Source: a virus (taxonomy: Duplodnaviria; Heunggongvirae; Uroviricota; Caudoviricetes). Taken from it: 15,479 nucleotides of DNA. Of this stretch, positions 1-15,479 are shown one piece after another; within the stretch, counting starts at the first letter, position 1, and each line of letters starts with the position of its first letter. The notes beneath the pieces are model-generated. The model saw only the letters and a program-made list of their open reading frames with translations, did not search any database and was not told the origin of the DNA. Location: IMG/VR virus record IMGVR_UViG_2695420487_000018; one strand, given 5' to 3'. A program made the position numbers and the translations under genes.

Positions 1-165
1 ATGGCAAAGCCGATCATCACGCTCAATGGCCTAAAAATCGTCATTATGTTGGGAATGCTGGTCATTATTCTCTGCGGTATCCGTTTTGCCGCCGAGATCA
101 TCGTGCCGTTTATTCTCGCATTATTTATTGCTGTTATATATAACTTATTTCACATAACACGTTGA
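1..165 (+). pseudogene. tqsA: Truncated 5' part of a host inner-membrane transporter gene (TqsA/YdgG-like); about 45 host-like codons, then 9 codons of AT-rich island DNA to a TGA
   Basis: ATG at 1; translation [45 protein letters not shown]... is a hydrophobic N-terminus I recognise from memory as E. coli-type TqsA (not searched). Composition switches abruptly to AT-rich at about 135-140. Confidence 0.45.
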
Positions 166-462
166 TTTAATTAAATAATTTTCACCACAAAAAGTGCCAA
201 AAATCGCAAAATGACTACACCAGTGACTACACCGTTCGGTGCACTGTATGAAACAACGTGGAACAAATAGACACAAGAAATATACAGGCGGATCATCTTT
301 CCAGGGGGAAGCGCACCAATTCATGAGGGGCGTTAATGTCGATATGGGGATCCCCACCTACCGGAATTTTTTTCCGGTTAAACGTTAATCAGGCTGGTGG
401 GCTTTACCTGTTCGGTAGGAGTTATGATTATCGTAATACCTTTCCCCCAATGGGGTAAAAGC

Positions 463-609
463 ATCAACCGTAACGAAAGTCGTTATGGTTGCCACTGATA
501 CCCCAAATTTGGGTATCACGAGTAAGACCCAAAATCTGGGTGTTACTCTTACTACCCAAACTACGGGTAGTTTCCGTAGTTTCATGGTCGAGTTGCAGAT
601 CTGCAACTC
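463..609. repeat. Array of dyad-symmetric sites: AACCGTAACG-N5-CGTTATGGTT (463-487), three ACCC-N7-GGGT sites centred at 507, 534 and 561 (27-bp spacing), and a perfect 20-bp palindrome GAGTTGCAGATCTGCAACTC (590-609)
   Basis: Read directly from the sequence; arms GATACCC/GGGTATC and CTACCC/GGGTAG are perfect reverse complements. Confidence 0.6.
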
Positions 610-902
610 CCCCATTAACCACAGGCGAATTTCCGCCTTCGGTCATTCCTTAATCATCTGCGTAATCATAATGATTATTCAGCAAGCGCAATTTTGCGCT
701 TTGCTTAAAGTTCAGCGAGTTACCGCGCCGACTTCCTCAAATTGAGGTTTCCGAAAATATCAGCGGGTTAGCGATTAAGCTGATCATTAATTAAACTGCG
801 AAAATTTCGTAGTTTGTGACTGTCTTTCAGGCAGCTTGTTAACAGTCCTCAGAAGCGAGGGATGTAGCCACCCATTTTTGGTCCGTCGGGAATATCAACC
901 AG

Positions 903-1184
903 TTACCGCCGCAACCGCTCCGGCTTCTTCCAGTGGTACGTTATTTTCTCCTTCTCCCGATACATCTCCACGCGGCGACGGTAGGCCAGCAACTCAAGAA
1001 CTCTGGTTCGTATGTTGCGCATATCCACGCCATTAAGTTCTATACCATCACGGCGCATCACCTCAGCAACAACACGCGCATAGTTTTCGGCTGTCACGCT
1101 GTCCGGCTGCGTGGCCTGTTCGTCAGCCTGCTGGCTGATTCCAGAGACGCGGCGGATTAATCGCAGTATTTCGGCTTCTGTCAT
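903..1184 (-). CDS. Hypothetical protein (93 aa), last gene of the packaging operon
   Basis: ORF starts 14 nt after the TerL stop, with GAGG about 9 nt upstream of the ATG; no family recognised. Confidence 0.5.
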   Translation of the reverse strand: MTEAEILRLIRRVSGISQQADEQATQPDSVTAENYARVVAEVMRRDGIELNGVDMRNIRTRVLELLAYRRRVEMYREKEKITYHWKKPERLRR

Positions 1185-1197
1185 GCTGCTGACCTCA

Positions 1198-2859
1198 TTA
1201 CACCCCGCTAAATTCTTCCAGTTTCTGGCGGTGGCTGTCGCTTATATCAAAAGCAAAATCCTCATGCTCTGCCTGGAATGTACCAAACGCCATCAGCGCC
1301 GCTACGCTCGGGTCTATCTTGTTCGGTGATTTTTTCTTGTTCGGCTTGATATTGGCGTTCGCGTCACTCTGCATCACGACGTTACTCATCGACCAGGACA
1401 ACACCGGATCGCCACGATGCACAATCACCCTGCGGTTAACAAAAACTTCGAACGATTTCGCCGCCGGACTGAATCTGAGGTAGGTTTGCGGGAACGGCTC
1501 CACCTCAAAACCTGCCCCCTGTAATTGCGTTCTGAGATGCGTGGCGTTCCACGTATCAAAGCCCACCAGCCTGATATTAAATTTCTCCGCGTCCTGCATG
1601 ATGTCATCTCTGATCCGGTCGTAATCAATGCAGTCGCCAGGTGTTGTGCGTATCCAGCCTGCTTTAGCCCACTGACGATAGACAGCGCGGTTTTTATTGG
1701 CGGGGTTCTGTAGCTGGAACTCCGGCAGATAATGACGGGAAACCAGCATAATGGTTTTACCTACCGGAAAGGCATAGCACACGCTGGAAATATCGCTTGT
1801 GGATGATAAATCCAGCCCCGCGTAACACTCCTGGCCGTGTAAATCTTCCTCCGTGAACGTTCCGGCACACTCAGCCCATGCGCCGTTACCCATCCACGGG
1901 GTAGTCCCCTGACACCAGATATTAAATCGCTTTGTCATCATCTCCACCCACTGCGACGGAATACCCCGCGCTTTCTGGATGGTTGAGGCCAGTTTTTCAC
2001 GATCCACGGAAACATCAATATTAGGGTTCGCCTTTATCCACATCGCCGGATCATCAACCTCGTTTTCGTCGTCCAGTTCGTAAATCAGTACAAAAATTGA
2101 ATCGTTAACCTCTTCGCCGTCCAGGATCTGGCAGCAATAATCATAGTGCTGCTTACAGGCTGAAACGACGTTGCTGCCTGATGTGGTAATGGCAAATAAC
2201 AGCCCTTCGGGACGTGCGCCCATCCCCAGCTCAAGCGCGGAATAAACGCCGTTATCGGGGTGCAAGTGGTATTCGTCCACGATGGAAAGGCTTGGGTTTG
2301 TGCCCTCGATGGTTGCCGCTTTTGCTGCCAGCGGCTTTAACAGGCTGTTGCTTTTCGGGTGTATCACCTTATGCGCCTGAATATTCACCCGCCTGCGTAA
2401 CGGTCGGGATAAAAGGCACATCTGACGCGCATCATCAAAGACGATCCGCGCCTGGTCACGGCTCACCGCTGCGGTGTAGATATCCTGCTGACCGTTCTCC
2501 ATAATCAGAAACCAGTTAGCCAGAATCGCGGCGGTCGTGGATTTCGCATTTTTGCGCGGCACTTCGATAAAGGCGCTCGTATATTTGCGCCGTCCGGTGG
2601 CCTTAACCTTAAAGCCGAGGATGCACGCAAAGGCGAACTGCTGCCACGGCTCCAGCTCAATGGGTCTGCCACGCATCGGTCCTTTTACGTGCGGGCACAC
2701 CCTGGAAAAGGCAATAAACCGCTCCACAACCTCACGATCGAACGTGTAAAGGGGGCTTTTAAGGTCCGAAAAGTACCGTTTAACAGCCTGTTTTAACCGT
2801 TTACAGGCCGGAATTTTGCCCGTTTTTACGTCTTCTGCGTACTTATTCCAGGCGGTCAA
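1198..2859 (-). CDS. terL: Terminase large subunit (HK97/Terminase_1-like)
   Basis: 553-aa ORF; N-terminal ATPase region with P-loop-like VPRKNAKST, C-terminal nuclease-like region; start overlaps the TerS 3' end by 17 nt. Confidence 0.9.
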   Translation of the reverse strand: MTAWNKYAEDVKTGKIPACKRLKQAVKRYFSDLKSPLYTFDREVVERFIAFSRVCPHVKGPMRGRPIELEPWQQFAFACILGFKVKATGRRKYTSAFIEVPRKNAKSTTAAILANWFLIMENGQQDIYTAAVSRDQARIVFDDARQMCLLSRPLRRRVNIQAHKVIHPKSNSLLKPLAAKAATIEGTNPSLSIVDEYHLHPDNGVYSALELGMGARPEGLLFAITTSGSNVVSACKQHYDYCCQILDGEEVNDSIFVLIYELDDENEVDDPAMWIKANPNIDVSVDREKLASTIQKARGIPSQWVEMMTKRFNIWCQGTTPWMGNGAWAECAGTFTEEDLHGQECYAGLDLSSTSDISSVCYAFPVGKTIMLVSRHYLPEFQLQNPANKNRAVYRQWAKAGWIRTTPGDCIDYDRIRDDIMQDAEKFNIRLVGFDTWNATHLRTQLQGAGFEVEPFPQTYLRFSPAAKSFEVFVNRRVIVHRGDPVLSWSMSNVVMQSDANANIKPNKKKSPNKIDPSVAALMAFGTFQAEHEDFAFDISDSHRQKLEEFSGV

Positions 2860-3199
2860 GCTCGTCCTCTTCTTCTGTTTCCGGTGGATTTTTACGGCGG
2901 CTTATCGGGTCAAAACCGAGCAAGGAGGCCATTTTTATCATCACTCTTTCCGCGTCGGATTTCGCGCTTAATGCGGGGTTTCTGCTCTCTCCGCCCTGAC
3001 TGTTAACAATGCTGAACCCGCGCGCCGCAAGGTCTGCGACGGCTTTCCGGTATATCGAGTAATTGACGCAATACAGTTCCAGATTACTCCAGTCGGCGGG
3101 AGTCAGGTCACCCCGTTCCGCAAGCGGCCGCGATTTTTCCCGCCACTGCTTCACGGCGATATCATCCAGGTAGGCGGGGGCTTTCGGTGGTCTTGCCAT
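2843..3199 (-). CDS. terS: Terminase small subunit (P27-family-like)
   Basis: 118-aa ORF directly upstream of and overlapping TerL; acidic C-terminal tail EEEDELDRLE; size and position typical of HK97-type TerS. Confidence 0.75.
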   Translation of the reverse strand: MARPPKAPAYLDDIAVKQWREKSRPLAERGDLTPADWSNLELYCVNYSIYRKAVADLAARGFSIVNSQGGESRNPALSAKSDAERVMIKMASLLGFDPISRRKNPPETEEEDELDRLE

Positions 3200-3322
3200 G
3201 CTTATTTTTTCGCCAGATTATTTTTCAAAAAATTCCCGTGCATAAAAATTTGAGGAGGCGTTCGGTGCCCGGCGGGGTCGGGTTTGTCCTGAAAACGCCC
3301 CCCACCCCGTCATACAGCCTCA

Positions 3323-3505
3323 TCAGCGATTGCGGAAACATTCCATAACCTCGCGGTCACGGTCGGTTAATCGCTTCGCTGTGATGCGTTCTGCGCGTCC
3401 TGACGCTTTATCTTTATGCCCTGTTTCCTGTGTCTTCCATGCGTCACGCTGCCTTATAAGTCCACGGATAAGGCGGTTTTGTTCCCGCTCATTCATCAGC
3501 GTCAT
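3323..3505 (-). CDS. Small basic hypothetical protein (about 57-60 aa) between HNH and TerS
   Basis: ATG at 3505 or 3496 lies just upstream of, and out of frame with, the HNH stop (3489-3491), suggesting coupling; translation M(TLM)NEREQNRLIRGLIRQRDAWKT... is Arg/Lys-rich. Only the 3' part of the longer 3323..3727 track ORF is used; weak SD. Confidence 0.3.
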   Translation of the reverse strand: MTLMNEREQNRLIRGLIRQRDAWKTQETGHKDKASGRAERITAKRLTDRDREVMECFRNR

Positions 3506-3929
3506 ACATCCAGTTATTGCGGTTAGCGGCCCGTTCTTCCTCTTCATGAAATCCACCTGCGGCACGCTTGCTTTTTGTTGCCGGATCAAGCCATTTCGTT
3601 TTCTGGTTATGACACGCCTGGCACAATGGTTGATGGTTCCATTCGGGCCAGAAGAGAACATCATCACCGCCATTAATCGGGATAATGTGATCCACCACCA
3701 CGGCGGGCGTATATATCCCCTTCTCAAGGCATCGCACGCATAACGGGTTTTTACTCAGATACATGGCGCGGTATTTGTCCCACTGTCTGGAGTACCCACG
3801 CGCGCGGCGGTGTCCTCGTCTGGCATCCTCTGCACGCCATGCCGCCCGCCTGTGCTCCTCACACTTGCCGGACTTCACGCGCCTGTTACAGCCTGGTTCT
3901 GTGCATCGTCTTAATGGTTGCCACGGCAT
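3489..3929 (-). CDS. HNH endonuclease (terminase-associated)
   Basis: 146-aa ORF with Cys pairs and the HNH core ...VVDHIIPINGGDD...NHQPLCQACHNQKT; start overlaps the upstream gene stop (TGATG). Confidence 0.85.
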   Translation of the reverse strand: MPWQPLRRCTEPGCNRRVKSGKCEEHRRAAWRAEDARRGHRRARGYSRQWDKYRAMYLSKNPLCVRCLEKGIYTPAVVVDHIIPINGGDDVLFWPEWNHQPLCQACHNQKTKWLDPATKSKRAAGGFHEEEERAANRNNWMYDADE

Positions 3930-4225
3930 CAGTACACCCCCACATCACGGTAAGCCGTCCAGAGCGCGCCAATCGTCATGGGTACGCGCGTTTTTGCGTT
4001 ATCCGCTACCAGCTGGCGATTCTCGTACAGGTGAGCGATAAACATCATGCAGCCAATCTTTATGGCTGGCGTGAACTCCAGCCCGTCATCAAAGCGCCTG
4101 CCTATATGTATCTGGCACGCCTCAAGCGATGCGGCAATGTATCCGCTGATTAACTGGTCTTCCTCGTCGCCATCGATGCGGCAATGGAGTTTCACTTCTT
4201 CCAGGGTGATAAGTTCTTCTGTCAT
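3929..4225 (-). CDS. Head-tail connector protein (gp6-like family)
   Basis: 98-aa ORF; N-terminal LITLEEVKLHCRIDGDEEDQLI resembles the gp6-like connector signature; ATGA overlap with the upstream gene. Confidence 0.65.
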   Translation of the reverse strand: MTEELITLEEVKLHCRIDGDEEDQLISGYIAASLEACQIHIGRRFDDGLEFTPAIKIGCMMFIAHLYENRQLVADNAKTRVPMTIGALWTAYRDVGVY

Positions 4226-4560
4226 TTTTCCGCGCCCTCACGACAAAGAATTTCAAGGCGTGTCCTGGCGGCATCCGGCAGCGGCTGCCCGATGATATTC
4301 AGTACACGCCCCGCCAGCGGCCCCGTATTGACCTTTATCCGGCTGGTGGCGTTGATGTCCTTCCTGTAGCGTATCCATATCCTTACCGTTCCAGTCGCCA
4401 GTTCTGCACCCGATGAAATGGCCTCCTTGCTGCTGATCATGTTCACGCTTGCCCAGAGTGTGTGACCGTCCACCCACGTTTCGAGTATTTCGCCGGTTAT
4501 ATCCCTGGTCTGTTTCAGGGTCTGAATCGTTACCCTGTCACGCAGTCGCCCTATGTTCAT
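4222..4560 (-). CDS. Head closure / head-tail joining protein (Phage_H_T_join-like)
   Basis: Track ORF 4222..4602; likely start is the ATG at 4560, overlapping the portal stop (ATGA). About 112 aa, MNIGRLRDRVTIQ...VRIWIRYR... resembles head-tail joining proteins. Confidence 0.6.
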   Translation of the reverse strand: MNIGRLRDRVTIQTLKQTRDITGEILETWVDGHTLWASVNMISSKEAISSGAELATGTVRIWIRYRKDINATSRIKVNTGPLAGRVLNIIGQPLPDAARTRLEILCREGAEK

Positions 4561-5768
4561 TCCGGTTTTTCTCCCTCGCTGATTTTTACTTCCTGTTTCC
4601 ATGCCTGGCTGAACTCATCACCACCATCACGCGGGGACAGCCCTTCACGTTCGCGGGCTTCGTTCGGGCACATAACGCCGGATTTGATGCCGCGTTCATA
4701 GGTGGCAAAGCGTTCGCCAGGTGTGGCCCGTAACAGGTCCGCGCTGTCAAACTCCACCTGATACCGGATACCAGGTACAGGTGAGGCCACCAGCAGGGCG
4801 TTTTTTATCTGCTGCTCAAAGTTCGCCAGCCACGGGCGCATCGTCATGGTGAGAAATGCGCGGCTTGCCTCGCTGAAATTGCTGTAGGTGCTGTTGCTGT
4901 ATTCCTGCAAAAAAATCGGCGAGACGTTGAACATTCGGGCGATGTCTTCAATGGTGAAGCGACGGGAGGCCAGCCATTCAGCATCCTGATTACTCATGCC
5001 CAGCTGCTGATAGCTCATACCCCCTTCAAGGATGGGCGTTTTTCCGGCGTTTCTGGCCCCTTTGTAGCGTTCCAGTGCGGCTAATGCCTGTTTGCCCTTC
5101 ACGCCGTCCAGCCATTCGCCTGACGTGATAACCCCTGCCGCCATCATGCCATCACGCATCACGCTCGCGCCGTGGCGTTGTTGGGCCAGCCCAAGCCCCA
5201 GCGATTCGCGGCAGATGGTTACAGGTGAGCGCCCCATAAAACCGTCATCTGTGGAGTAACGAAGGTGGAGAACCTCCCACGGTAAATAGTTGCGGGTGTT
5301 TCCGGTGTAGGCGTCAGTGATGCAGTAGCGCCAGTTATGCTCACCTGTCTGCTCCACGTTCACCGACTGCGGCGGGTAAGGATGTAAAGCCACCGGAAAA
5401 CCATCACGCCCCCACCGAATCACCGCATAAGCATTACCGTTTAACAGGCAGTGGCGGATCATCATTCGCTTAAACTGGTAGGGGGTTTGCCACGCGTTCG
5501 GGCGCTCGTTGAGGATGTGATCGACCGGATGAGAATCAAGCCACTCGCGGGCCTCCTTCCCCTTCTCATTGCGTACCAGGTACAGGTAACACGGCATGGT
5601 AGCCACCGCCTCAGAGATGACCGTCACGACGTTCATGACGGCGGGCAGTGATTCCGCTGTCCCCGATGATACGTACTCACCCGCCCCCGTGTTCGATGTG
5701 CCGGCCAGCGCCATAAACTCATCAAGCGTCATGCTGCGCTGCTCTTTTTTTCTTCTGAAAGGCCACAT
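4557..5768 (-). CDS. Portal protein (HK97 family)
   Basis: 403-aa ORF directly after the prohead protease gene; size and sequence character of HK97-type portals. Confidence 0.85.
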   Translation of the reverse strand: MWPFRRKKEQRSMTLDEFMALAGTSNTGAGEYVSSGTAESLPAVMNVVTVISEAVATMPCYLYLVRNEKGKEAREWLDSHPVDHILNERPNAWQTPYQFKRMMIRHCLLNGNAYAVIRWGRDGFPVALHPYPPQSVNVEQTGEHNWRYCITDAYTGNTRNYLPWEVLHLRYSTDDGFMGRSPVTICRESLGLGLAQQRHGASVMRDGMMAAGVITSGEWLDGVKGKQALAALERYKGARNAGKTPILEGGMSYQQLGMSNQDAEWLASRRFTIEDIARMFNVSPIFLQEYSNSTYSNFSEASRAFLTMTMRPWLANFEQQIKNALLVASPVPGIRYQVEFDSADLLRATPGERFATYERGIKSGVMCPNEAREREGLSPRDGGDEFSQAWKQEVKISEGEKPE

Positions 5769-5769
5769 A

Positions 5770-6327
5770 TCACACCCCCGCTAAATCCGCCCACCAGCGG
5801 CGATTATCCGCACGCGGCATTTTTTCGGGGTGCTGCTCGTACAGGGAGCGGCGGGCCAGCTCCACGCCGGAATCAGGGTAAGCCGGTACGGATGTAACGG
5901 TAATTTCGTACAGTTCCGCCACCAGCACGGTGCGCACGCATGGATCTGTTGTGGTATCCCATACATCCTTACGGGAGCGAAAGCCAAAGCTCATGCCGGA
6001 TATATCACCACGTTTAACCAGTTCGATAACGTCCCGCCCTGTGCTGGTATCCGGTGGGATCAGTTCAAAACGTAACCCTGTGTCATCCTCTTCCAGTCTC
6101 AGCGTACCGGAACGGGTGCGCCCCAGTAACATGCTGTGGTCATGCTCATACAGGCCGCGAACGTCATTACCCACCGCAAGCCATTCAGTAAACGCCCCCC
6201 GCTGGAATTTTTCGTAAAACTCCCCCCATAGCAGCTCTGAAAGGTTATCCCAGCGAACAACGTAGCCTGTAAGCGTGTTGCTGCCGCTGGTGGTGATTTC
6301 CGATGACCGGATTTCCATACTCATCAT
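5770..6327 (-). CDS. Prohead maturation protease (HK97 family, S78-like)
   Basis: 185-aa ORF between capsid and portal genes; N-terminal ...TLTGYVVRWDN... and internal EHD motif typical of HK97 prohead proteases. Confidence 0.8.
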   Translation of the reverse strand: MMSMEIRSSEITTSGSNTLTGYVVRWDNLSELLWGEFYEKFQRGAFTEWLAVGNDVRGLYEHDHSMLLGRTRSGTLRLEEDDTGLRFELIPPDTSTGRDVIELVKRGDISGMSFGFRSRKDVWDTTTDPCVRTVLVAELYEITVTSVPAYPDSGVELARRSLYEQHPEKMPRADNRRWWADLAGV

Positions 6328-6381
6328 AATTTTTTCACCTGTAAAACAGAGAAGGGGCTTTTTAGCCCCTTCGGTGTGCTG

Positions 6382-7539
6382 TTAATCGTCGTCCTGCGGC
6401 AGTTCCAGAATCTTTATAGCGTTCGAATCCACCACGCCACCGCCTAAATATTTCTGCGTGAAAATTTTGATAAAGCCCGGCTCTGTCAGGTTGTCCGGTC
6501 TGGTGCGCACGCCCGTTTCATGATCAACGATGTAATAACCGCGTTTGAAGTCACCCAGGGCGATAACGTTATCCGGCATAAATTCCAGATACTCCACCGG
6601 AAGCCCCAGCAACGTATCAGGATCACCCGCCTGTAAACGGTCGCGCCAGATGTAATCGCCGTTCGCGTTCTTCACCTTCTGAAGTTTTGCCGCCGTCGTG
6701 GAGTTAACCACCCAGACCGCGTTTTTGCGGTATTTTTTACGTAATGCAAATTTCAGGTCGATCAGCGGGTCCGCAGATGTCCACGCCAGAGATTCGGAAG
6801 GTTTAATTACCTGCAACGTACCAAAATCACGCTCTTTGTCGTTCTTCTCTGCACGGGGTACGGATAAAAAACCTTTTGCTTTTTTGTCACCGTCGCCCAC
6901 AACCAGATCGCTTTCTTCGGTTTCCGTGAAGGTGTCGCCAATCTCACCCGTCAGCCATGAAAGGATGTCCACATCGGAAAAATCCACGATTTCCTGTGTG
7001 GTGCGCGGGTACGCATAGACCGGATACAGCTTAATGCTCACCTCGTTAATCTGCGGGGTGCTGGTCTGTTCGCGTGCCTTACCCTCTTCACCGTGGTTAA
7101 CGGTCGCACCGCCAGCGGAAACAAGCTGCTTAAACTCGTTGCTGCTGATTTTCTTCACGGTACAGATGCGGCGCATGGTGGATTCATCCGCCAGCATTCG
7201 CATGATTTCGGTGTTCAGCTCGGGGATAACGGTATAACCACCATCAGCGGGAACGCCTGTACTTAATGCGCGGGTTTCACCTGTCAGGATGTAGTTGCGT
7301 AGTTCTGCGGGGTCAGTGGTCTGACTGCTTTTACCTGGCTTGCTGCGCTCTTCGTCTGCAATGGCTTCAAGGCGGGAAATGTCTTTATCGAGGGATTCAG
7401 CTTTAGCGCGTAATTCGTCAAATTTTGCGCCCTCAGCATCGTTAAGACTGCGGTTTTCTTTTTCCGCGTTCTCCAGCATGTCGCGCATCTGATTTTTAAT
7501 GGCGGTTTTCTGCTGGCGTAATTCGATTATTCTCGGCAT
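6382..7539 (-). CDS. Major capsid protein (HK97 fold) with N-terminal coiled-coil delta/scaffold domain
   Basis: 385-aa ORF; first ~100 aa are coiled-coil-like (IIELRQQKTAIKNQMRDMLENAEKENRSL...), followed by a capsid-like body. Confidence 0.85.
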   Translation of the reverse strand: MPRIIELRQQKTAIKNQMRDMLENAEKENRSLNDAEGAKFDELRAKAESLDKDISRLEAIADEERSKPGKSSQTTDPAELRNYILTGETRALSTGVPADGGYTVIPELNTEIMRMLADESTMRRICTVKKISSNEFKQLVSAGGATVNHGEEGKAREQTSTPQINEVSIKLYPVYAYPRTTQEIVDFSDVDILSWLTGEIGDTFTETEESDLVVGDGDKKAKGFLSVPRAEKNDKERDFGTLQVIKPSESLAWTSADPLIDLKFALRKKYRKNAVWVVNSTTAAKLQKVKNANGDYIWRDRLQAGDPDTLLGLPVEYLEFMPDNVIALGDFKRGYYIVDHETGVRTRPDNLTEPGFIKIFTQKYLGGGVVDSNAIKILELPQDDD

Positions 7540-7546
7540 AAAAAAA

Positions 7547-7576
7547 GTCCTGGGGTTAAGTAAGGAACTCCAGGAC
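7547..7576 (-). promoter_or_regulatory. Hairpin immediately upstream of the capsid gene start; its 3' arm contains the only SD-like AGGA and is followed by U7 then AUG
   Basis: Minus-strand RNA GUCCUGG-AGUU-CCUUACUU-AACC-CCAGGAC-UUUUUUU-AUG; 7-bp perfect stem plus 3 further pairs after one mismatch. Confidence 0.45.
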
Positions 7577-7629
7577 GCGGCAAAAACTCAACCGTTTTTC
7601 ATAAGGAAATCAGCAATCGCACCGTTCGT

Positions 7630-7677
7630 TTTCCCGCCTGGTAATGAATATTGGCGAGAACATTAACAGGCGGGAAA
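7630..7677 (-). other. Long imperfect hairpin in the capsid-operon leader (11-bp perfect stem TTTCCCGCCTG/CAGGCGGGAAA plus 5 inner pairs, 14-nt loop)
   Basis: Read directly from the sequence; no U-run follows on either strand. Confidence 0.5.
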
Positions 7678-7754
7678 GTGGCCCCAGCGTCCTGGCACCA
7701 CGGGCGAGAATAATCATGATTCAGTTCGGGTAAAATATGCCGATCCGCTCAGTG

Positions 7755-7779
7755 AACAACGTGGAACAACCACGAACAA
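7755..7779. promoter_or_regulatory. 25-bp dyad motif AACAACGTGGAACAACCACGAACAA (core CGTGG-AACAA-CCACG) upstream of the capsid operon; a second copy lies at 14170-14194 and a half-copy at 252-266
   Basis: Exact or near-exact matches found by eye (1 mismatch between the two full copies); both lie inside runs of 10-bp-phased ACAA/TGTT. Confidence 0.55.
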
Positions 7780-7796
7780 ATAATTTACAAAACATG

Positions 7797-7820
7797 ACAA
7801 AAAGCCGGATTGCTCCGGCT
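7797..7820 (-). terminator. Rho-independent terminator ending the replication/regulatory operon
   Basis: Minus-strand RNA AGCCGGA-GCAA-UCCGGCU followed by UUUUUGU, 7 nt after the stop of the 7827..8099 gene. Confidence 0.65.
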
Positions 7821-7826
7821 GTGTGA

Positions 7827-8099
7827 TTATCTGTCCTGGTAATTTCGCCATATTTCATCACCAGCACCATCCATACCCATTTCGGCATAAGTGCGATCGA
7901 CCGCCTTTTTCAGGTCTCCGTAATTATCCGGCGGCTCCGGTGGCCTCTGTGCCTTCCTGGAACATTCCAGCCGTCGCATCGTGATGTGATGCCGTTCCTT
8001 GTCTGTCTCCACCAGTTGCATGACTTCACCCCATCGCGCCGACGCTCTCCGGTAAAAGCCTTTCGCCTCCAGTTCTTCCGCTATGCGGTCATGTACCAT
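7827..8099 (-). CDS. Small hypothetical protein (about 90 aa); possibly a PerC/ANR-like regulator (uncertain)
   Basis: Track ORF 7827..8108 starts at GTG; the ATG at 8099 has GGGGTGGGGA upstream. Motif AEELEAKGFYRRASARWGEVM is reminiscent of PerC/ANR-type proteins, from memory only. Confidence 0.55.
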   Translation of the reverse strand: MVHDRIAEELEAKGFYRRASARWGEVMQLVETDKERHHITMRRLECSRKAQRPPEPPDNYGDLKKAVDRTYAEMGMDGAGDEIWRNYQDR

Positions 8100-8111
8100 C
8101 GTCCCCACCCC

Positions 8112-8522
8112 TCAGAACGGAATATCATCACCGTAAGGGTCATCGCCTTCCGCTGGTGGCTGATTACCCTGTGTGCCTGTGGTCTTGCGTCTGTTCCCGC
8201 CAGGACGTGCCGCACGGGCACTGATTACGCTGTCTGCAATAACCTGATACCCCCGCCGCGTTTCCCCGTTCTGTCCGGTCCACTGGCTTACCTGCATCGT
8301 GCCGGATACGCTGGCAACATCGCCTTTTTGATGTTTAGCCAGGAAATCGGCCTGTTTGCCAAATGCGATAACCGATAACCATAACGTCGCCTGTCCGTCA
8401 TGTGCCTGGCTGCATGGCAGCGATACCGCCATACGCGCCAGCGTCATCGGTGTTCCCTTGCTGGTCTGTTTTACCTGCGGGTCGTCCACCAGCCGCCCGT
8501 AAGCCGCTATCTGTGCTGTCAT
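8112..8522 (-). CDS. ssb: Single-stranded DNA-binding protein
   Basis: 136-aa ORF; OB-fold-like N-terminal region, Gly/Pro/Gln-rich linker, acidic C-terminal tail ending DDIPF (SSB signature); ATGA overlap with the upstream gene. Confidence 0.85.
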   Translation of the reverse strand: MTAQIAAYGRLVDDPQVKQTSKGTPMTLARMAVSLPCSQAHDGQATLWLSVIAFGKQADFLAKHQKGDVASVSGTMQVSQWTGQNGETRRGYQVIADSVISARAARPGGNRRKTTGTQGNQPPAEGDDPYGDDIPF

Positions 8523-8770
8523 GCTGTCTGCTCTCCGGTTTTAACGTTGATGGTTGTTACCTGTTCCGCTTCGGCAATCTCCCGTTCTGTCAACGTGGCA
8601 AAGTTTGCCGCTGCTGTGGTCATGAATGCGCTTATCAGGTCGGGATGTTCCTTCGCGTATCCTTCCCCTACATGTCGGTCTATCGTTCTGATTGCCACCT
8701 TTAAGGCCAGCTCTGTTATATCTAACGCTTTATATTTCGGCTCTGTTCTGTCTCTGCGTGTTCTGGTCAT
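8519..8770 (-). CDS. Hypothetical protein (about 83 aa) immediately downstream of the origin
   Basis: Track ORF 8519..8803; the ATG at 8770 has GAGGTGG upstream, and the earlier ATG lies in the AT-rich origin. Confidence 0.5.
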   Translation of the reverse strand: MTRTRRDRTEPKYKALDITELALKVAIRTIDRHVGEGYAKEHPDLISAFMTTAAANFATLTEREIAEAEQVTTINVKTGEQTA

Positions 8771-8803
8771 TTGCCACCTCAATTTATATATATATAGAAA
8801 CAT

Positions 8804-9120
8804 GTGCGGGTTATGCGGGTTATTGGGTTATCTTAGCGTGCTAACCATTTTTTATCCTTTTATATCAGCATGTTGCAAAACGCCCTGTTTATTATTTGCT
8901 CACCACATAACCCGCAAAACGCTCAAAATAACCCGCAAACGGGGTTTTTTCTGCGGGTTACGCATGACTGTCCGGTGTTACTTCAGTTATTCGCCTGCGG
9001 GTTATAATCGTGCTTTTGCGGGTTATAAATGCCCTTTTGCGGGTTACGTGCGGGTTATTGATTTCCTTTATATTCATGCGCTTAATACACTTATACACAG
9101 GATAACCCGCATAACCCGCA
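8804..9120. repeat. Iteron-type replication origin: about 12 copies of GCGGGTTA(T/C) (8 forward, 4 reverse) plus AT-rich tracts
   Basis: Forward copies at 8806, 8815, 8953, 8997, 9018, 9039, 9050 (and degenerate 8824); reverse ATAACCCGC at 8907, 8928, 9102, 9111; AT-rich 8780-8800 and 8840-8900; directly downstream of the rep gene. Confidence 0.8.
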
Positions 9121-9142
9121 ATTTTTTTCCTCACACAGGGGA

Positions 9143-11275
9143 TTAATCTTCATCATCAGGCTGGAACATCAGCACGTAAAAAACATGCTGCTTACCCCCA
9201 ATCTTGCCCAGCGCCTTTTTTTTGTATCGGCGATCGCTTCCCTTCTCCAGCATTCCGGCAGCATCCAGGGCACGCGCAAAATGCGCCGGATTAAATCCCT
9301 TCGCTATCTCACTCTCAAACACGTGCGGGAACGTGTAATAGCGCATCTCGTCATCTTCGTTGCGAATGCTCCCTTTTCTGTATCCGGCAAGCTCTTTAAT
9401 CGGTAAATCACGCTCATCTGTATTGGGGTACGGAAGGTAGCGGCTAAACCCAAACGACGACAAAAACGCCTCAGCCTGTTCAACCATCTGTTTAAATTCC
9501 CTGTTACCTGTGCCGAACTCCTTCACCCAGGCATTAAAGTTATGCTGTATCGCGTCGCGGCATTCCTGCACGACCCAGCCAGTTACATGACCGGAAAGCA
9601 CAAGCGCGGCCTCCAGTATGGCGAAACGTTCACCCACGCGGTGGACCTGCTCGCCGTAACTCTCCGGTATCAGGTTGCGCCACCGTTCGCGGCATTCCCT
9701 TACCGTGTCCTTTGCCTCCTGCTGGTGGCCTGCCAGCCATTTAACCCACTCACGACCCGCCGCCCCGTGATTTGCTGTCCAGGCATCCTTTAACGCGTCA
9801 GCATGTTCCTTACCGTTGCTGTATTCGTGAAATTTCGTGGCTTTTTCCATCGGAACGTTAAGCAGTCGGACAAGCTGCCCCGCCTTAACTTTTATCCCCT
9901 CACTTTTGAGGAATGTCTCAACGTCCATTTCTCCGGTGCTGATTGCCACCGTTCGCCAGTGTTTGATCTCCCTGTTGCCGCCATCCTTCGCCCCCTGCAA
10001 TTTCCCTGAACCGTTAAACAGCGTATAAGCAGACGTTGACACTTCCCGCGCATTTCCGGCCTGGCCTATCTCATCCAGTGGTAAAAGCCCGTCATTATGG
10101 GCCTCGGCCTCATTGGCAATACCTAACGCCGTGCCGTACCAGGTCAGCCGCTGCGCGTCCGGCTCTCCCCATAAACTTGATGCGATGTTCTGCGTGGTGG
10201 TCTTACCTGCCGATGACTGTTCGAAAAGATGCACCCCGAAGCCGTCAGCACCCACAAGGCCAATTAAAGGCGCTGCCAGTGACGTTGCCACACCCAGTAT
10301 CATTGAGGCATTACCGCCAGCCAGCCGCGCCACGCTGTCGCGCCAGCCATCCGCCGTGCCCGCCACGGAATAACCGTTAATCGCGGCGCTTTTTCCGGTA
10401 AACAGGATCGGTTTTTCAGATTCACCAATGATCGAACCGTCCGGCATGATGTACGCGCCAAAATGCCAGCCCGTTGTTGTGCTTAACTGCCATTCCTCAT
10501 GGCTTCCGCTTAACTGCATCCAGTCCGCCAGGATTGCCCTGTATTTGCCGTTGGTTGTCACGTTCAGCCCGTGATCTTTAAGTAACCGCCAGCCGTCACG
10601 GTCGCCGATACCACCACACGGGATCGCCATTGTGATGACTTTATGGTTTGCGGTTTTTTTCCAGCGCATCACGCGGTAATGCTCTTTACCGATCGTCCCC
10701 GTTCCCAGTAGTTCAAGCGGAGAACATAACCACGTCTCAGGCCGGATAATTTCGCCTGACTGCTTATCCACTTTGGGCGTTACCCAGAAAACACCATCGG
10801 CGCGACTTTCAACGCGTGGCTTTAATTCGTCATCGCTATGGCTTCCGGTATCTTTTTTCTTTACCGGAAACTCAATAACCAGACCATCAGAAAGATTCTG
10901 CCGCTCACGGGCCAGATATTCGCGCCAGTTCTCCACCTTCTGACCGTGCATTCCTTCGGGGTAAAAATTTGCGTCCTGAATATCTGCCGCCGCCAGCTTC
11001 TGACCAATCTTTTTGGTCTCCACCAAATCCAGTTCTCCGGCCTGGTACAGCCTTACGCGTTTTTTTCCATCCGGAACAATTTTCAGCGCATCAAGTTCGG
11101 CAAGCTGATTTGGCCCAAGCCACACAGGCGGAACATTATCGCCGGATGCGGGGCCATCCTGCTCCTGCCATTGTTTCGCGTGCGACCAGGCATCACTACC
11201 CGCGAAAATAATTACCTCTGTGTCTTTGTGTTTTATTCCGCGTGGCTGTTTTTTTACGTTCGGTGCCAGTTTCAT
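9143..11275 (-). CDS. Replication initiator, primase/helicase-type (P-loop NTPase; DUF927/D5-like family suspected)
   Basis: 710-aa ORF; Walker A-like FEQSSAGKTT; position immediately upstream of the iterons matches pri-rep genes of satellites. Confidence 0.8.
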   Translation of the reverse strand: MKLAPNVKKQPRGIKHKDTEVIIFAGSDAWSHAKQWQEQDGPASGDNVPPVWLGPNQLAELDALKIVPDGKKRVRLYQAGELDLVETKKIGQKLAAADIQDANFYPEGMHGQKVENWREYLARERQNLSDGLVIEFPVKKKDTGSHSDDELKPRVESRADGVFWVTPKVDKQSGEIIRPETWLCSPLELLGTGTIGKEHYRVMRWKKTANHKVITMAIPCGGIGDRDGWRLLKDHGLNVTTNGKYRAILADWMQLSGSHEEWQLSTTTGWHFGAYIMPDGSIIGESEKPILFTGKSAAINGYSVAGTADGWRDSVARLAGGNASMILGVATSLAAPLIGLVGADGFGVHLFEQSSAGKTTTQNIASSLWGEPDAQRLTWYGTALGIANEAEAHNDGLLPLDEIGQAGNAREVSTSAYTLFNGSGKLQGAKDGGNREIKHWRTVAISTGEMDVETFLKSEGIKVKAGQLVRLLNVPMEKATKFHEYSNGKEHADALKDAWTANHGAAGREWVKWLAGHQQEAKDTVRECRERWRNLIPESYGEQVHRVGERFAILEAALVLSGHVTGWVVQECRDAIQHNFNAWVKEFGTGNREFKQMVEQAEAFLSSFGFSRYLPYPNTDERDLPIKELAGYRKGSIRNEDDEMRYYTFPHVFESEIAKGFNPAHFARALDAAGMLEKGSDRRYKKKALGKIGGKQHVFYVLMFQPDDED

Positions 11276-11571
11276 TTCTTACCCCTGAATACGTTAAGCA
11301 TCTTTTTTATTTCCTGAATATTGGCGCGTGCTTTCTCCCTGCTGGTTGGTTTACTGCGGGGCGCTGCCTGTACCAGAGAAAAATCACGCCGGAACTGATA
11401 AACAGGCATCACGCAATCATATTCGTAGCCTTCACGATGGTAGGTTACGCGCCGTTCCTCCACGCCCTTAATCATTACCGTGCCGCCGTACTGGTCGCGG
11501 TAAATATCCCCGCGCATGAATTTAGTGCGAGTTTTGCCGCTGTCAGTTAAGCCAGGATATTTAAGTTTCAT
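11272..11571 (-). CDS. Hypothetical protein (99 aa)
   Basis: ORF ends overlapping the rep start; GGGGA upstream of the ATG. Confidence 0.55.
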   Translation of the reverse strand: MKLKYPGLTDSGKTRTKFMRGDIYRDQYGGTVMIKGVEERRVTYHREGYEYDCVMPVYQFRRDFSLVQAAPRSKPTSREKARANIQEIKKMLNVFRGKK

Positions 11572-11576
11572 TATTT

Positions 11577-11840
11577 TTATTCCCCGATAGCGTGACCTGA
11601 TAAGCCGTTAATCTTCTCTGATATGCTCTCTATTTTGCTGGTTGAACTATCCAGTAATTCAGAAACGGCTAATATTAATCTTGCAGTTGATTCATCGCGT
11701 TCATTATTCACCAGCGACTGAAGCCACATATTCATTACTTCGTTTGCTGCGTTGTTTAAAGATATTGCGCTGTTGGCAAGGCTTCTTAATTCACTGGTCG
11801 CCAGTTTATTATTTTTCATAGCGTTCGGCTCTCTCATCAA
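11577..11840 (-). CDS. Hypothetical small helical protein (80-87 aa), AT-rich gene
   Basis: ORF track; alternative start at 11819; local GC visibly lower than the island average. Confidence 0.5.
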   Translation of the reverse strand: MMREPNAMKNNKLATSELRSLANSAISLNNAANEVMNMWLQSLVNNERDESTARLILAVSELLDSSTSKIESISEKINGLSGHAIGE

Positions 11841-12000
11841 TTAACCACAGCGCAACACTTCCTGACAGTTTTGCCAGAAGGCCAGCTAATGCGGATATAT
11901 CACCATCATTTAATTTATCAGGGTATACCTCAAGAAGGCGGCAAATAATTTCTGTCTGGTGCGCACGTTCAGCGGCTTCGTGTAATGTAATTTCCTTCAT
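11809..12000 (-). CDS. Hypothetical small protein (63 aa), AT-rich gene
   Basis: ATG at 12000 overlaps the upstream gene stop (TAATG). Confidence 0.5.
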   Translation of the reverse strand: MKEITLHEAAERAHQTEIICRLLEVYPDKLNDGDISALAGLLAKLSGSVALWLIDERAERYEK

Positions 12001-12185
12001 TAATGCACCTCTTTTAATTCATACACTGCTGAAATAATGACTTGTGATAAGCCATATTCTGATGATTCGCTTCTCACCGCAGCAATAGCCGTCTGAACAT
12101 TAACAGCCTTCACATTCTGAGCGATACCAATTGTGTGGCCTAGTGGGTTAACAGCGCTGGCAAATACACGGAAGGTTTTAAGCAC
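12000..12185 (-). CDS. Hypothetical small protein (about 62 aa)
   Basis: Track ORF 12000..12215 begins at TTG; the GTG at 12185 has AGGGGG 7 nt upstream and overlaps the upstream stop. Confidence 0.4.
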   Translation of the reverse strand: MLKTFRVFASAVNPLGHTIGIAQNVKAVNVQTAIAAVRSESSEYGLSQVIISAVYELKEVH

Positions 12186-12642
12186 GGCACACCCCCTGAC
12201 GAATACGGGCGACAAAAATCAGATGTGCGTGCGGCAGCTGGGCGCGGGCTTCGCGTTCAGTGGCTGCGGTAACGGTGTAAATATCAATGCTGCTGTGGTG
12301 GCACTGCATAAAGCGCCAGACAAAGTAAGGGCGTGCGGATACAGCCATGTGAAAGGCTCCCAGATGAATTTTAAGGAGTCTCGCTACTACGCTGCTAAAC
12401 ATGGTGGCGAGACGTAACAGGGTTAGCAGACTGGTCATCTGGAAACCAGCGAGCACAAAGGCTCCCCCGTTACGCCCCGCCATAATGCGGGTATGGGTAG
12501 GTTTACGGACACAAAAAAACCGCTTATCGGATGTGGGCGGCTGTCCGCCAGATGTATTCAGGCTGCTAAACCCGGTCGCCATGTGGGCGACGGGGGAAGC
12601 ATACAGCCCCGTGATAATTTTTTGCAAGCGGTTTTTACGCAT
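12178..12642 (-). CDS. Hypothetical protein; C-terminal about 55 aa paralogous to the 12635..12907 product
   Basis: Track ORF 12178..12684; ATG at 12642. C-terminal motifs FVWRF, TEREAR, ARIRQG are shared with the upstream gene, with third-position differences (GTC/GTG, CGC/CGT). Confidence 0.45.
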   Translation of the reverse strand: MRKNRLQKIITGLYASPVAHMATGFSSLNTSGGQPPTSDKRFFCVRKPTHTRIMAGRNGGAFVLAGFQMTSLLTLLRLATMFSSVVARLLKIHLGAFHMAVSARPYFVWRFMQCHHSSIDIYTVTAATEREARAQLPHAHLIFVARIRQGVCRA

Positions 12643-12907
12643 GATGTGACCCCTGACGAATACGGGCGGCAAATACAGCAACACAACCTGACGGGCAACG
12701 GCTACGCGCTTCGCGTTCCGTCCAGGCGGTTACGTGGATGATTTGAGATTCTCCGGCACTCAGTGCCAGAAAACGCCACACAAAGGCCGTTTGTGTGTGT
12801 ACAAGGTGTGGTATATGATTTACAGCAACCATAACGGCTCCTAGTTTACGTTGTTGGTTAGAAGCCCTGCGAGTGGTAACGACACTTGCGGGGCTTTGTC
12901 TTTTCAT
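12635..12907 (-). CDS. Hypothetical small protein (65-90 aa), first gene of the leftward operon; paralog of the next gene's C-terminal domain
   Basis: ATG at 12907 (AAGG upstream) or 12832 (AGGAG 5 nt upstream); same conserved motifs as the downstream paralog. Confidence 0.5.
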   Translation of the reverse strand: MKRQSPASVVTTRRASNQQRKLGAVMVAVNHIPHLVHTQTAFVWRFLALSAGESQIIHVTAWTEREARSRCPSGCVAVFAARIRQGSHHA

Positions 12908-12923
12908 CGATTACCTTGATAAA

Positions 12924-13006
12924 GGTGTCAGCCACTATATTAGTAACGGGTGTCAGCCACGTCAATAGTGTTTTTCCGTTTTCTTGTGTGTATACTGTCA
13001 GCCACC
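12924..13006. promoter_or_regulatory. Divergent promoter/operator region: leftward promoter TTGACG-N17-TAATAT (minus strand), rightward -10 TATACT, and three direct repeats TGTCAGCCAC
   Basis: Minus-strand -35 is rc of 12960-12965 and -10 is rc of 12937-12942 with a 17-nt spacer. Repeats at 12926-12935, 12951-12960 and 12996-13005 overlap promoter elements on both strands. Confidence 0.6.
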
Positions 13007-13026
13007 TAATAACGAGGAAATCAGAT

Positions 13027-13206
13027 ATGGCAACAAAAGCAGTTAATGCAAAATCCAAAAAGCTTGAGGCTCGAGTACCACACGCAATAGCTGATGCTGT
13101 AGAAAATTTAAAGGAAGATGGCGAAAGTACAGGGCAATTTATCGTTTCGGCACTTGAAGGCGAGATCAAACGCCGCCAGCGCCGCAAGGCCAAAGAATCA
13201 GAATAA
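13027..13206 (+). CDS. Small DNA-binding protein, ribbon-helix-helix-like (59 aa); candidate regulator of the switch
   Basis: GAGGA 8 nt upstream of the ATG; pattern KKLEARVPHAIADAVENLKEDGESTGQFIVSALEGEI fits a beta-strand plus two helices; basic C-terminal tail. Confidence 0.55.
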   Translation: MATKAVNAKSKKLEARVPHAIADAVENLKEDGESTGQFIVSALEGEIKRRQRRKAKESE

Positions 13207-13248
13207 TCACTATCAGCGCCGTGGTGTGAGGTATTACGGCGCATTGCT

Positions 13249-13437: not shown

Positions 13438-13532
13438 TTGCATTGCCCACCAGCCTGATAGCGGCTATCATCCCCGTGCTTATGTTTGGGATCACACACA
13501 CAAACGGCGCAGCGGGTTATCTGTTCAGAAAG

Positions 13533-13560
13533 GCGGCTCCATTTCGGGGCCGCTTTTTTT
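13533..13560 (+). terminator. Rho-independent terminator of the rightward unit
   Basis: GCGGCTCC-ATTTC-GGGGCCGC (8-bp stem with one G-U) followed by TTTTTTT. Confidence 0.7.
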
Positions 13561-13706: not shown

Positions 13707-13895
13707 TTAATGAACTGCCTTGCAGCTATCCTTCCAGGCCAGAACCTCGGATAAAGACCAGCCAACGGAACGACCGCCAAGTTTACGACGTGATGGGAAT
13801 TGTCCGGCCTTTTCCAGGCGGTAGCGACACGTACGGCTAAGGCCGGTTAGTTTTTCGCATTCTTTTTCACGTATAAACCGATCAGTGCTTAACAC
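13707..13895 (-). CDS. alpA: AlpA-family transcriptional regulator (excisionase-like HTH)
   Basis: 62-aa ORF ...KECEKLTGLSRTCRYRLEKAGQFPSRRKLGGRSVGWSLSEVLAWK... matches the AlpA pattern; GTG start with AGGGGGG 6 nt upstream; sits next to int. Confidence 0.8.
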   Translation of the reverse strand: MLSTDRFIREKECEKLTGLSRTCRYRLEKAGQFPSRRKLGGRSVGWSLSEVLAWKDSCKAVH

Positions 13896-14047
13896 TATTG
13901 CCCCCCCTTTCGTTTCTTAAAGAGTCATCAGGTGTCTTATTGTGTCGTATTGTTCCCGCTAGAGTGATGAATGGCAAATATTGAGGATGTATGATTTACA
14001 GAAAATGAAACAGTAAGAATAAAATCTTTTAAATTCATGTTAATACA

Positions 14048-14169: not shown

Positions 14170-14220
14170 TTGTTCGTGGTTGTTCCACATTGTTGCTCAT
14201 TGTTGCACGTTGTATCTGTT
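14170..14220. promoter_or_regulatory. Second copy of the 25-bp dyad motif (rc AACAATGTGGAACAACCACGAACAA) within five 10-bp-phased TGTT units, upstream of alpA
   Basis: 14171-14220 reads tgttcgtggt/tgttccacat/tgttgctcat/tgttgcacgt/tgtatctgtt; one mismatch relative to the 7755-7779 copy. Confidence 0.55.
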
Positions 14221-14261: not shown

Positions 14262-15479
14262 TTATTTTCTTCTGGCTACTGGTAGCGTGGTTACGTTTTC
14301 ATGTGTTCCCGCCAGTATCCCTAACCGCTCCGTCCACATATCCAGCGCATTGCGTTTAGCATCCAGATAACGGGAATGATTATAAACTCGCTGCATTCCT
14401 GGCATCTGGTGGCCTGTAAGCTGCTCCACGACATGCGGATCAACGCCTAAATCGTTCAGCATCGTTGTAAAGGTGCGCCGGATGTCATGCAGTGACCAGT
14501 GAGGATGATTAAGCCTCCTGTGCGCTAATCTTCCATACTGCGATACGCTGGCCTCCTGTTTCACTTCCCCCAGCAATAAGCCCGTGTGCCTGTTCTGCTC
14601 CACCAGCTGCGTGACGAACGGCAGGATCGCTTCCGGTATGGGCCGGAATATTGCGACCTTCGTTTTGCTGTGCTCCTTCGGAACGGTCCATAGCATTTCC
14701 GTAAAATCCCACTCTCCGATCTCCGATAACCTCAGTTCTACCGTTCTGGCTCCGAAGACAATCAGGAGGCGGATTAACGCGACGTAGTAAGGGGAGAATA
14801 TTTTTTTGTCCAGTGCCTGCAATAATTCGCCAAGTTCTTTGTTACTTAAGACACGTTCGCTTATATCCGGTTTTTTCCCAACGTCCGCCACGTTCAGATC
14901 GTCCAGAACGTTGCTGATTGCATAGCGCCGCCTACGGCAGAACTTAAGCGCCTGTTTGCACGCCTGTAGCACGAATCCGGCAGTAACAGGCGTTCGCTTT
15001 GCCACCTGGTCAAAACAGGCCAGCCAGTGCCGTAGCTCGCATTTATCCAGCGGCATAGCACCAATCTGCTGTATTACGTGATTATTAAGTCGCCTTTTCA
15101 GGGCGATATAATCCACGCGGTTTTCCTTTACGTAATACTCAAGCCAGTAGGTGAGCGCATCGCCAACCGTTACCGGCTTTAACGCTTCCTGTACGGTGTA
15201 ATTAAGCTCATGACGTGGATTTTTCCCCTCTGCCAGCCATGCGCGACACTGGGCGGCTTTTTCCCTGGCTGATTTCAGGCTCAGATCAGGATAACTTCCC
15301 AGCTTAATGCGTTCGGGTCGTGTCTCCCTTCCCGTTCCGGCCCTGTATGTGAAATACCAGGTCAATTTCCCTGATGTTAAATATTTCACGCTCAGGTTTC
15401 CGCCATCACTATAAAACGTGTTTTTCTCCGCTGGCTTACCATGAAGTTTCCTTAGCAAGGTATCGCTCAGTTTGTTCAT
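14262..15479 (-). CDS. int: Tyrosine site-specific integrase (P4-like, with N-terminal arm-binding domain)
   Basis: 405-aa ORF starting at the window edge; catalytic-domain motifs HDIRRTF and RVYNHSRY; N-terminus GNLSVKYLTSGKLTWYFTYR typical of arm-binding domains. Confidence 0.9.
   Translation of the reverse strand: MNKLSDTLLRKLHGKPAEKNTFYSDGGNLSVKYLTSGKLTWYFTYRAGTGRETRPERIKLGSYPDLSLKSAREKAAQCRAWLAEGKNPRHELNYTVQEALKPVTVGDALTYWLEYYVKENRVDYIALKRRLNNHVIQQIGAMPLDKCELRHWLACFDQVAKRTPVTAGFVLQACKQALKFCRRRRYAISNVLDDLNVADVGKKPDISERVLSNKELGELLQALDKKIFSPYYVALIRLLIVFGARTVELRLSEIGEWDFTEMLWTVPKEHSKTKVAIFRPIPEAILPFVTQLVEQNRHTGLLLGEVKQEASVSQYGRLAHRRLNHPHWSLHDIRRTFTTMLNDLGVDPHVVEQLTGHQMPGMQRVYNHSRYLDAKRNALDMWTERLGILAGTHENVTTLPVARRK

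Follow-up and report, generated by a model that had tools for sequence, protein, structure and literature searches.

The 15-mer AACAACGTGGAACAA at positions 252-266 of the window (the whole stretch of 15,479 nucleotides analyzed here) covers two consecutive ACAA units of an array of direct repeats, which are arranged head-to-tail and follow each other at one helical turn. Judged from the sequence, this copy near the left end probably binds the same protein as the copies between int and alpA and upstream of the capsid operon. On balance, we favor AlpA as this protein. With its excisionase fold, AlpA would bind the ACAA arrays both as an excision factor and as an activator, and the 15-mer would represent AlpA operator units in the int-distal arm of attP.

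The window DNA is a capsid-forming PICI (cf-PICI) of the EcCIEDL933 type. It is 96.5% identical to EcCIEDL933, the prototype cf-PICI (cf-PICI paper), across positions 156-15476 and 99.3% identical to islands in other E. coli. cf-PICIs are defined by int, alpA and pri-rep together with their own capsid, protease, portal, connectors, HNH, TerS and TerL, by the absence of tail and lysis genes and by a size of ~15 kb (cf-PICI paper). According to the annotation of near-identical records, this gene set is present in the window (int, alpA, a DUF927 primase-replicase gene, a PerC-family gene, capsid, protease, portal, connectors, HNH, TerS and TerL), and the minus strand carries all island genes. The insertion point is the 5' part of tqsA, which is annotated as split in related records. 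Window positions 1-137 are the start of tqsA, and the tqsA/island boundary lies at 137/138. A right-hand copy of the 9-bp core TGCTGTTAT is located at 16671-16679 of the near-identical island L001, where tqsA resumes in frame; the complete int (409 aa) is also present in L001. The left junction and the genes relevant here are as follows.

129..137, no strand assigned: att core and left junction TGCTGTTAT, with the tqsA 5' fragment to the left and island DNA to the right.
7827..8108, minus strand: PerC-family activator gene (E=3e-43).
13707..13895, minus strand: alpA (62 aa), encoding the candidate array-binding protein (Pfam PF05930, Phage_AlpA).
14262..15479, minus strand: int, a tyrosine integrase gene cut by the window end (Pfam Arm-DNA-bind_3 and Phage_integrase).

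Three further elements of the island were recognized. A 263-aa ORF without Pfam match (12858-13649, minus strand) is located between alpA and the Icd-like genes. L001, otherwise 99.3% identical, carries this ORF as a truncated pseudogene, which explains ~500 bp of length difference. A C4 antisense RNA (Rfam RF01695, 72.7 bits, E=7e-13) is found at 12400-12487 on the minus strand, in the zone from alpA to the replication genes. Direct and inverted copies of TGCGGGTTAT at 8798-9127, just downstream of the DUF927 primase-replicase gene, resemble origin iterons. Replication iterons were considered as the identity of the arrays and rejected, since these ori repeats are unrelated to ACAA.

As the core TGCTGTTAT occupies 129-137, the 15-mer begins 115 bp inside the tqsA/island junction, which agrees with the distance of about 110 bp given in a preliminary description of this DNA. 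The identity to the left half of the motif at 7755-7779 described there is confirmed as well: the 15-mer is an exact copy of 7755-7769, i.e. of the left 15 bases of the 25-mer AACAACGTGGAACAACCACGAACAA, which reappears reverse-complemented at 14170-14194 with 24 of 25 positions matching. Also the proposed 10-bp phasing of ACAA is evident. As in the tandem repeats of an RDF operator array, the units at 252, 262 and 272 are spaced by exactly 10 bp, and a weaker one follows at 282.

242..286, plus strand: distal-arm array in 10-bp register, with CACTG at 242 (degenerate), AACAA at 252, AACAA at 262, CACAA at 272 and ATACA at 282 (weak).

Allowing three mismatches, the 15-mer has seven matches in the window (0.57 expected; seven reached in 0/200 shuffles), and AACAA-N5-AACAA with at most one mismatch has nine (1.57 expected; 0/200 shuffles). 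The matches to both patterns are confined to three non-coding stretches, 252-276, 7755-7799 and 13940-14214. The latter two comprise the following elements.

7755..7799, plus strand: capsid-operon upstream array, AACAA three times, then TACAA and GACAA.
13940..13954, minus strand: AACAA-N5-CACAA, a pair of extra units that precede the alpA start by 45-60 bp.
14170..14214, minus strand: int-alpA intergenic array of five units on the alpA-sense strand, TACAA and AACAA four times.

The 15-mer had been regarded as a half-copy of a dyad motif. The CGTGG/CCACG dyad, however, is lineage-specific. It is present only in EDL933-like arrays and was found neither in the alpA-upstream arrays of EcCICFT073, L005 and L136 nor in the arms of classes B and C described below, and inverted-repeat symmetry is not conserved among the homologous sites. 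Since ACAA is invariant as direct repeats, the term half-copy of a dyad is wrong. The earlier idea that a shared protein binds at the att arm is partly supported: the motif belongs to the att arm and binding of the shared protein is probable, but the motif is not a half-site of a dyad operator.

In the left arm the 15-mer is part of a ~60-bp module composed of a doubled 11-mer and the array. A putative IHF site precedes this module.

155..167, minus strand: AATCAACGTGTTA, a putative IHF site matching the consensus, with the core on one side and the distal doubled 11-mer on the other.
211..233, plus strand: doubled 11-mer ATGACTACACC-A-GTGACTACACC, the putative Int arm-type sites of the distal arm, also found in the int-proximal arm.

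In both arms the array follows the doubled 11-mer by 8-18 bp and is hence placed next to putative Int arm-type sites, a location within the att arm as for an RDF operator array. The int-proximal arm was read in L001, where it extends from the int start to the right junction and lies 37-100 bp beyond the right end of the window. There, the doubled 11-mer is followed by CACAA-N5-TACAA-N5-AACAA-N5-AACAA, so that the order is doubled 11-mer, 8 bp, four ACAA units and core. Both arms are co-oriented and align without gaps over ~60 bp; in the distal arm the array is on the far side of the doubled 11-mer relative to the core. The distances from the core to the distal doubled 11-mer (72-75 bp) and from the proximal doubled 11-mer to the core (125-128 bp) are constant in four att specificities, with the arm-to-core distance at tqsA measured by hand, and the att cores comprise 9-11 bp across the sites compared. 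The exact IHF consensus WATCAANNNNTTR has only two matches in the window, one of them at 155-167, and the TTGATT core of this site with YAA-N4 before it is kept in L002, L003 and L004. An arm-binding domain in Int, repeated sites in two arms, fixed spacing, a short core and an IHF consensus are all found together. As far as sequence features can tell, this layout is that of the attP of a heterobivalent tyrosine integrase.

The left non-coding region contains a further repeat. An 18-nt perfect inverted repeat connects positions 388-405 with 1558-1575 inside terL, for which our own arithmetic gives ~0.003 pairs expected by chance. Classical PICIs without terL, including EcCICFT073, likewise conserve the left copy, ATCAGGCTGGTGGGCTTT.

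For the conservation of the array, islands at the tqsA, phoQ/roxA, smrA/abgR, clpS/cspD and yifB sites were compared together with arms from viral contigs and further arms from six other genera. The phoQ/roxA islands included EcCIEDL933, a classical PICI and EcCICFT073 itself. A scan of homologous islands had been suggested for the motif, and the motif is indeed conserved at this position in all related islands examined, in E. coli at six integration sites. Counted over the distinct PICI-type arms among the 21 arms listed, an ACAA register of +9/+19/+29/+39 after the doubled 11-mer is common to every arm of this PICI clade; the 15-mer corresponds to units +19 and +29 of the distal arm, counted from the end of the doubled 11-mer, and represents the best-conserved part of the array. 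Among 40 units ACAA is invariant with a single exception at the last A, whereas the five spacer positions vary with a weak preference for CG(T/A)G(G/A). The int-proximal arms of Kosakonia and Phytobacter (Int ~54%, AlpA ~65% identical) have the units at +19 and +29, and those of Enterobacter and Buttiauxella (Int 53-55%, AlpA ~65% identical) keep only the +29 unit.

Three classes of distal arms were distinguished, class A being the type found in the window. In class C the spacer TGCGG replaces CGTGG, and homology to the window stops exactly after the array. Class B arms have other spacers, flanks and distance, but carry AACAA/AACAA/AACAA/AACAC in unchanged register. These classes bear on the question of whether the left-end copy has any function. 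It might be no more than a leftover of an arm-module duplication, with which the alignment of both arms as a ~60-bp direct repeat is consistent, or a chance match, since an exact 15-mer pair is only mildly unlikely in a 15-kb window (~0.2 expected by our own arithmetic). Both variants of this explanation are very improbable, because the two 15-mer units are identical at 10/10 positions when classes A and B are compared, as against 16/33 (48%) of the other positions. Moreover, the units are perfect and in the same register in class B arms with wholly different spacers and flanks, and in L005 the homology to the window ends precisely at the end of the array.

The doubled 11-mers are likely the arm-type sites of Int. 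They occur as variants of the GTGAC or the TTAAC type, which track the type of the N-terminal arm domain of Int in both arms: along with the Int type, GTGACTACACC is switched to TTAACTACACC in both arms. The two Int types are ~80% identical in the N-terminal arm domain as compared to 88-92% over the whole protein. Across this switch AlpA is 90-100% identical and the arrays are unchanged. Because the 11-mer variant follows the Int arm domain while AlpA and the arrays remain constant, we assign the doubled 11-mers to Int.

Alternatively, the Arm-DNA-bind_3 domain of Int might recognize the ACAA arrays as a further kind of arm-type site, and Int could then modulate promoters through the copies at alpA and the capsid operon. 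Consecutive Int arm sites are known from lambda (P'1-P'2-P'3). The arrays always accompany this Int clade in a fixed register beside the doubled 11-mer, they persist in the arms of lineages without an array at alpA, and they disappear where Int identity drops to 40-47%. Nevertheless, we consider this assignment unlikely, since it is the doubled 11-mer and not the array that co-varies with the Int arm domain. Four units of the doubled motif suit an Int tetramer, so that seven to eight extra sites would be excessive, and there is no doubled 11-mer near the arrays at alpA or the capsid operon. In addition, the array-bearing PalpA region responds to AlpA alone (PMC6092414).

The distribution of the arrays was analyzed with a strict definition: an array had to contain three or more units at a spacing of exactly 10 bp, each of them with the central C and no more than one mismatch, and two or more of them perfect. 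By this definition, 59.4 kb of PICI DNA contain 14 arrays. None is present in 137.7 kb of flanking DNA, which comprises 92.7 kb of chromosome and, as a negative control, a 45-kb lambdoid prophage region from CFT073. The strict arrays are restricted to four kinds of sites, namely the distal and the proximal arm, the intergenic region of int and alpA and, only in cf-PICIs, the region upstream of the capsid operon.

It is conceivable that the arrays require no protein of the island, if phased AA curvature or binding of a host nucleoid protein or response regulator supplied the bends of the intasome and the promoters. The phasing of A-rich units at exactly 10 bp would fit such a role, and the nearby IHF consensus may be taken as a sign that host factors are used in the arm. 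However, the invariant part of the units is ACAA with a fixed C rather than an A-tract, such arrays are absent from the 138 kb of neighboring host and prophage DNA, and sister PICI clades that also need bent arms do without them. The PhoP box has a period of 11 bp, in contrast to the 10 bp of the arrays. Consequently, we regard an explanation without an island protein as quite improbable. The PhoP box was also considered as a specific candidate, since the EDL933 island adjoins phoQ, but was rejected because of its period and because arrays occur at all integration sites. PerC was rejected as the array binder, since arrays are present in islands without perC (L004, L005).

The int-alpA intergenic arrays comprise five to six units, with six in EcCICFT073. 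In L002-L005, L136 and EcCICFT073 the units of this array are conserved and the spacers variable. At the position equivalent to the two extra units at 13940..13954, TTGTG/TTGTT pairs are found in L005, L136 and L141. The capsid-operon array is placed between the perC terminator (7803-7820) and the start of the capsid gene (7539). It is kept in the cf-PICIs L136 and L137 despite unrelated surrounding intergenic DNA and is absent upstream of capsid genes in the classical PICIs compared. Relative to the downstream gene, the orientation of the array at alpA is opposite to that at the capsid operon. Scans for sigma-70 promoters and terminators in the surroundings of the three arrays yielded only the perC terminator above the level of shuffles, so that promoter positions are guesses. 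An Rfam search of the window gave no match at the arrays.

The surroundings of both arrays contain potential RNA structures. A hairpin AAAGGCAT...ATGCCTTT with T-rich sequence behind it is located at 14050-14080, between alpA and its upstream array. EcCICFT073 and L136 preserve this stem in a different sequence, and relatives from other genera have a GC-rich hairpin and a T-run directly before alpA. The hairpin upstream of alpA may be an attenuator or terminator controlling alpA. The capsid-operon leader contains an inverted repeat with a 17-bp stem (94% complementary) at 7630-7677, which separates the array from the start codon of the capsid gene. The perC gene runs into the terminator at 7803-7820, directly upstream of the capsid array.

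Besides Int, AlpA is the sole DNA-binding protein common to these islands. It matches PF05930 with E=5e-17 and 61.8 bits (curated cut-off 21), and its match to PDB entry 8c3t, the GIsul2 excisionase, has E=2e-6. The same structure is the best match of the AlphaFold model of AlpA (pLDDT 86) with a TM score of 0.83-0.90; RdfS, Pukovnik Xis and TorI are further structural matches. With a profile score above the cut-off and an excisionase fold, AlpA is thus a Phage_AlpA winged-helix protein of the excisionase type. For EcCICFT073 it has been described that AlpA activates its own promoter without Int, while a Pint fusion was unaffected, and that overexpression of AlpA without helper leads to int-dependent excision and replication (PMC6092414). 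Furthermore, an alpA mutant of EcCIEDL933 shows no induction (published). In general, the binding sites of RDFs are direct repeats that follow each other in tandem at a spacing of one turn, both at att and at promoters (PMC7498355). Our literature search found no published operator for PICI AlpA. Among the observations that count against AlpA as the array-binding protein are the opposite orientation of the arrays at alpA and the capsid operon, and the missing effect on Pint, although the proximal array is located just upstream of int.

A second, distant AlpA-like ORF (33-35% identical) is present at the int-far end of many related satellites (among them L116 at 8308-8460, L148, L171, L174 and L204). 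It resembles alpA_1 of EcCIMP1, which supports helper-phage excision (PMC11773190).

The comparison of more distant lineages gives a mixed picture. Where AlpA is 65-68% and Int 54-76% identical, the arrays of the arms are kept and none is found upstream of alpA. The E. coli alpA alleles with ~70% DNA identity (L138, L139) likewise keep the arm arrays and lack the alpA-upstream array. Because the 65-68% AlpA lineages have no array upstream of alpA, the link to AlpA rests on the EcCICFT073/EDL933 lineage. For the AlpA relatives from other genera, in which Int and AlpA have both diverged, the comparison covers the int-proximal arms, the distal arms lying beyond the 10-kb flank. Arrays are lost where both AlpA and Int have diverged to less than ~58% identity, i.e. 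in L137 and in arms of the helper-embedded (HE) PICI type. The latter carry TGTATTGC-N4-TGTATTGC and no ACAA arrays, and both AlpA (50-58%) and Int (40-45%) differ from the window proteins. Since both proteins have diverged wherever arrays are lost, covariation is unable to separate AlpA from Int.

L137 (NZ_CP136018.1, relevant stretches 9005-9050, 1690-1730 and 17090-17130) is an hpt-type cf-PICI (hpt-gcd island), whose AlpA-like protein has 94 aa and is 47% identical. Its arms contain doubled GAGTGATACACC and no ACAA arrays. The capsid-upstream array is retained in L137, with the first unit alone degraded to AACAG, and substitutions between L137 and L136 concentrate in this first unit. Retention of the capsid-upstream array in L137 is not readily explained by binding of AlpA.

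If AlpA is the array-binding protein, the following sequence of events would be plausible. A helper phage would turn alpA on, and AlpA would bind the ACAA arrays head-to-tail and cooperatively. Bound in this way, it would bend the arms beside Int, which presumably occupies the doubled 11-mers, and thereby promote excision by recombination of attL and attR. Through the int-alpA array it would boost its own transcription, and in cf-PICIs it would turn on the capsid operon. From these three actions we propose that one small protein couples excision, induction and packaging. A more far-reaching version, which we put forward tentatively and consider rather doubtful, is that a bifunctional AlpA forms filaments on both att arms in register with Int and that its operator was copied to the alpA promoter and, upon acquisition of the capsid module by cf-PICIs, to the front of this module, making a 62-aa protein the single timer of excision, self-amplification and capsid production. 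RDF sites on both arms are, to our knowledge, unusual, which speaks against AlpA, and we know of no description of such a two-arm RDF architecture for lambda, P2/186 or P4.

In Gram-negative PICIs, among them the capsid-making cf-PICIs, AlpA acts as the master switch, and the phased ACAA units at four defined places are a concrete and conserved candidate for its operator. If true, this operator would account for the coupling of excision with induction by a single protein and, in cf-PICIs, with the expression of capsid genes as well. For annotation, a doubled 11-mer and a phased array at a fixed distance from the core provide a signature by which the boundaries attL and attR can be recognized in this PICI clade.

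In lambda, the Xis sites X1-X1.5-X2 adjoin the Int arm site P2 and are located between P2 and the core. The int-proximal arrays, likewise between doubled 11-mer and core, resemble these sites, at which Xis binds as head-to-tail monomers one turn apart (PMC7498355). In the distal arm of the island, in contrast, the array lies beyond the arm sites as seen from the core. Furthermore, the Xis sites are confined to a single arm and are not known to serve in promoter activation.

A likeness also exists to 186 Apl and P2 Cox, which are both excisionases and promoter regulators. Their operators consist of five to seven direct repeats with 10-11 bp spacing, to which the proteins bind cooperatively with bending and with weak specificity for the single site (PMC7498355). 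The island arrays comparably comprise three to six ACAA units spaced by 10 bp in the att arms and two presumed promoter regions. Apl and Cox, however, repress lysogenic and lytic promoters, while PICI AlpA is an activator (PMC6092414), and their sites have been described on one arm instead of both. The protein families also differ: the island AlpA belongs to PF05930, and it is a candidate for binding the arrays.

P4 Vis, RdfS of ICEMlSymR7A and the GIsul2 excisionase (8c3t) share both fold and family with the island AlpA. Vis is the excisionase of P4 and a relative of PICI AlpA (PMC6092414). RdfS binds attP beside a putative Int arm site as well as its own promoter (PMC11963761). It represses this promoter and has no recognizable consensus motif, in contrast to the clear candidate repeat unit of the islands. 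The AlpA antiterminator of P. aeruginosa shares only the name and the role of a positive regulator with PICI AlpA. Its helix-turn-helix involves residues 128-142, and it binds a GGGACG element located between -35 and -10 and reaches into the RNA exit channel (PMC9371919). As a model for the 62-aa PICI AlpA it was rejected, since it is far larger and its GGGACG site is a single one (PMC9371919).

Binding of RDFs to direct repeats spaced by one turn at att sites and promoters is already well known from P2 Cox, 186 Apl, P4 Vis and RdfS. Therefore, the island case is an extension of this principle and not a new mechanism. The attP of helper-embedded PICIs contains the doubled motif tgTGTATTGCa in two co-oriented copies on opposite sides, 81 and 132 bp from the center (PMC10111431, Mageeney and Williams 2023), which was proposed to bind either the arm domains of Int or AlpA (PMC10111431). 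The doubled GTGACTACACC of the islands, at 72-75 and 125-128 bp from the core, is similar in arrangement but differs in motif sequence, and the HE-PICI arms have no phased array next to their doubled motif. This adjacent phased array is what the present islands add to the doubled attP motif of HE-PICIs.
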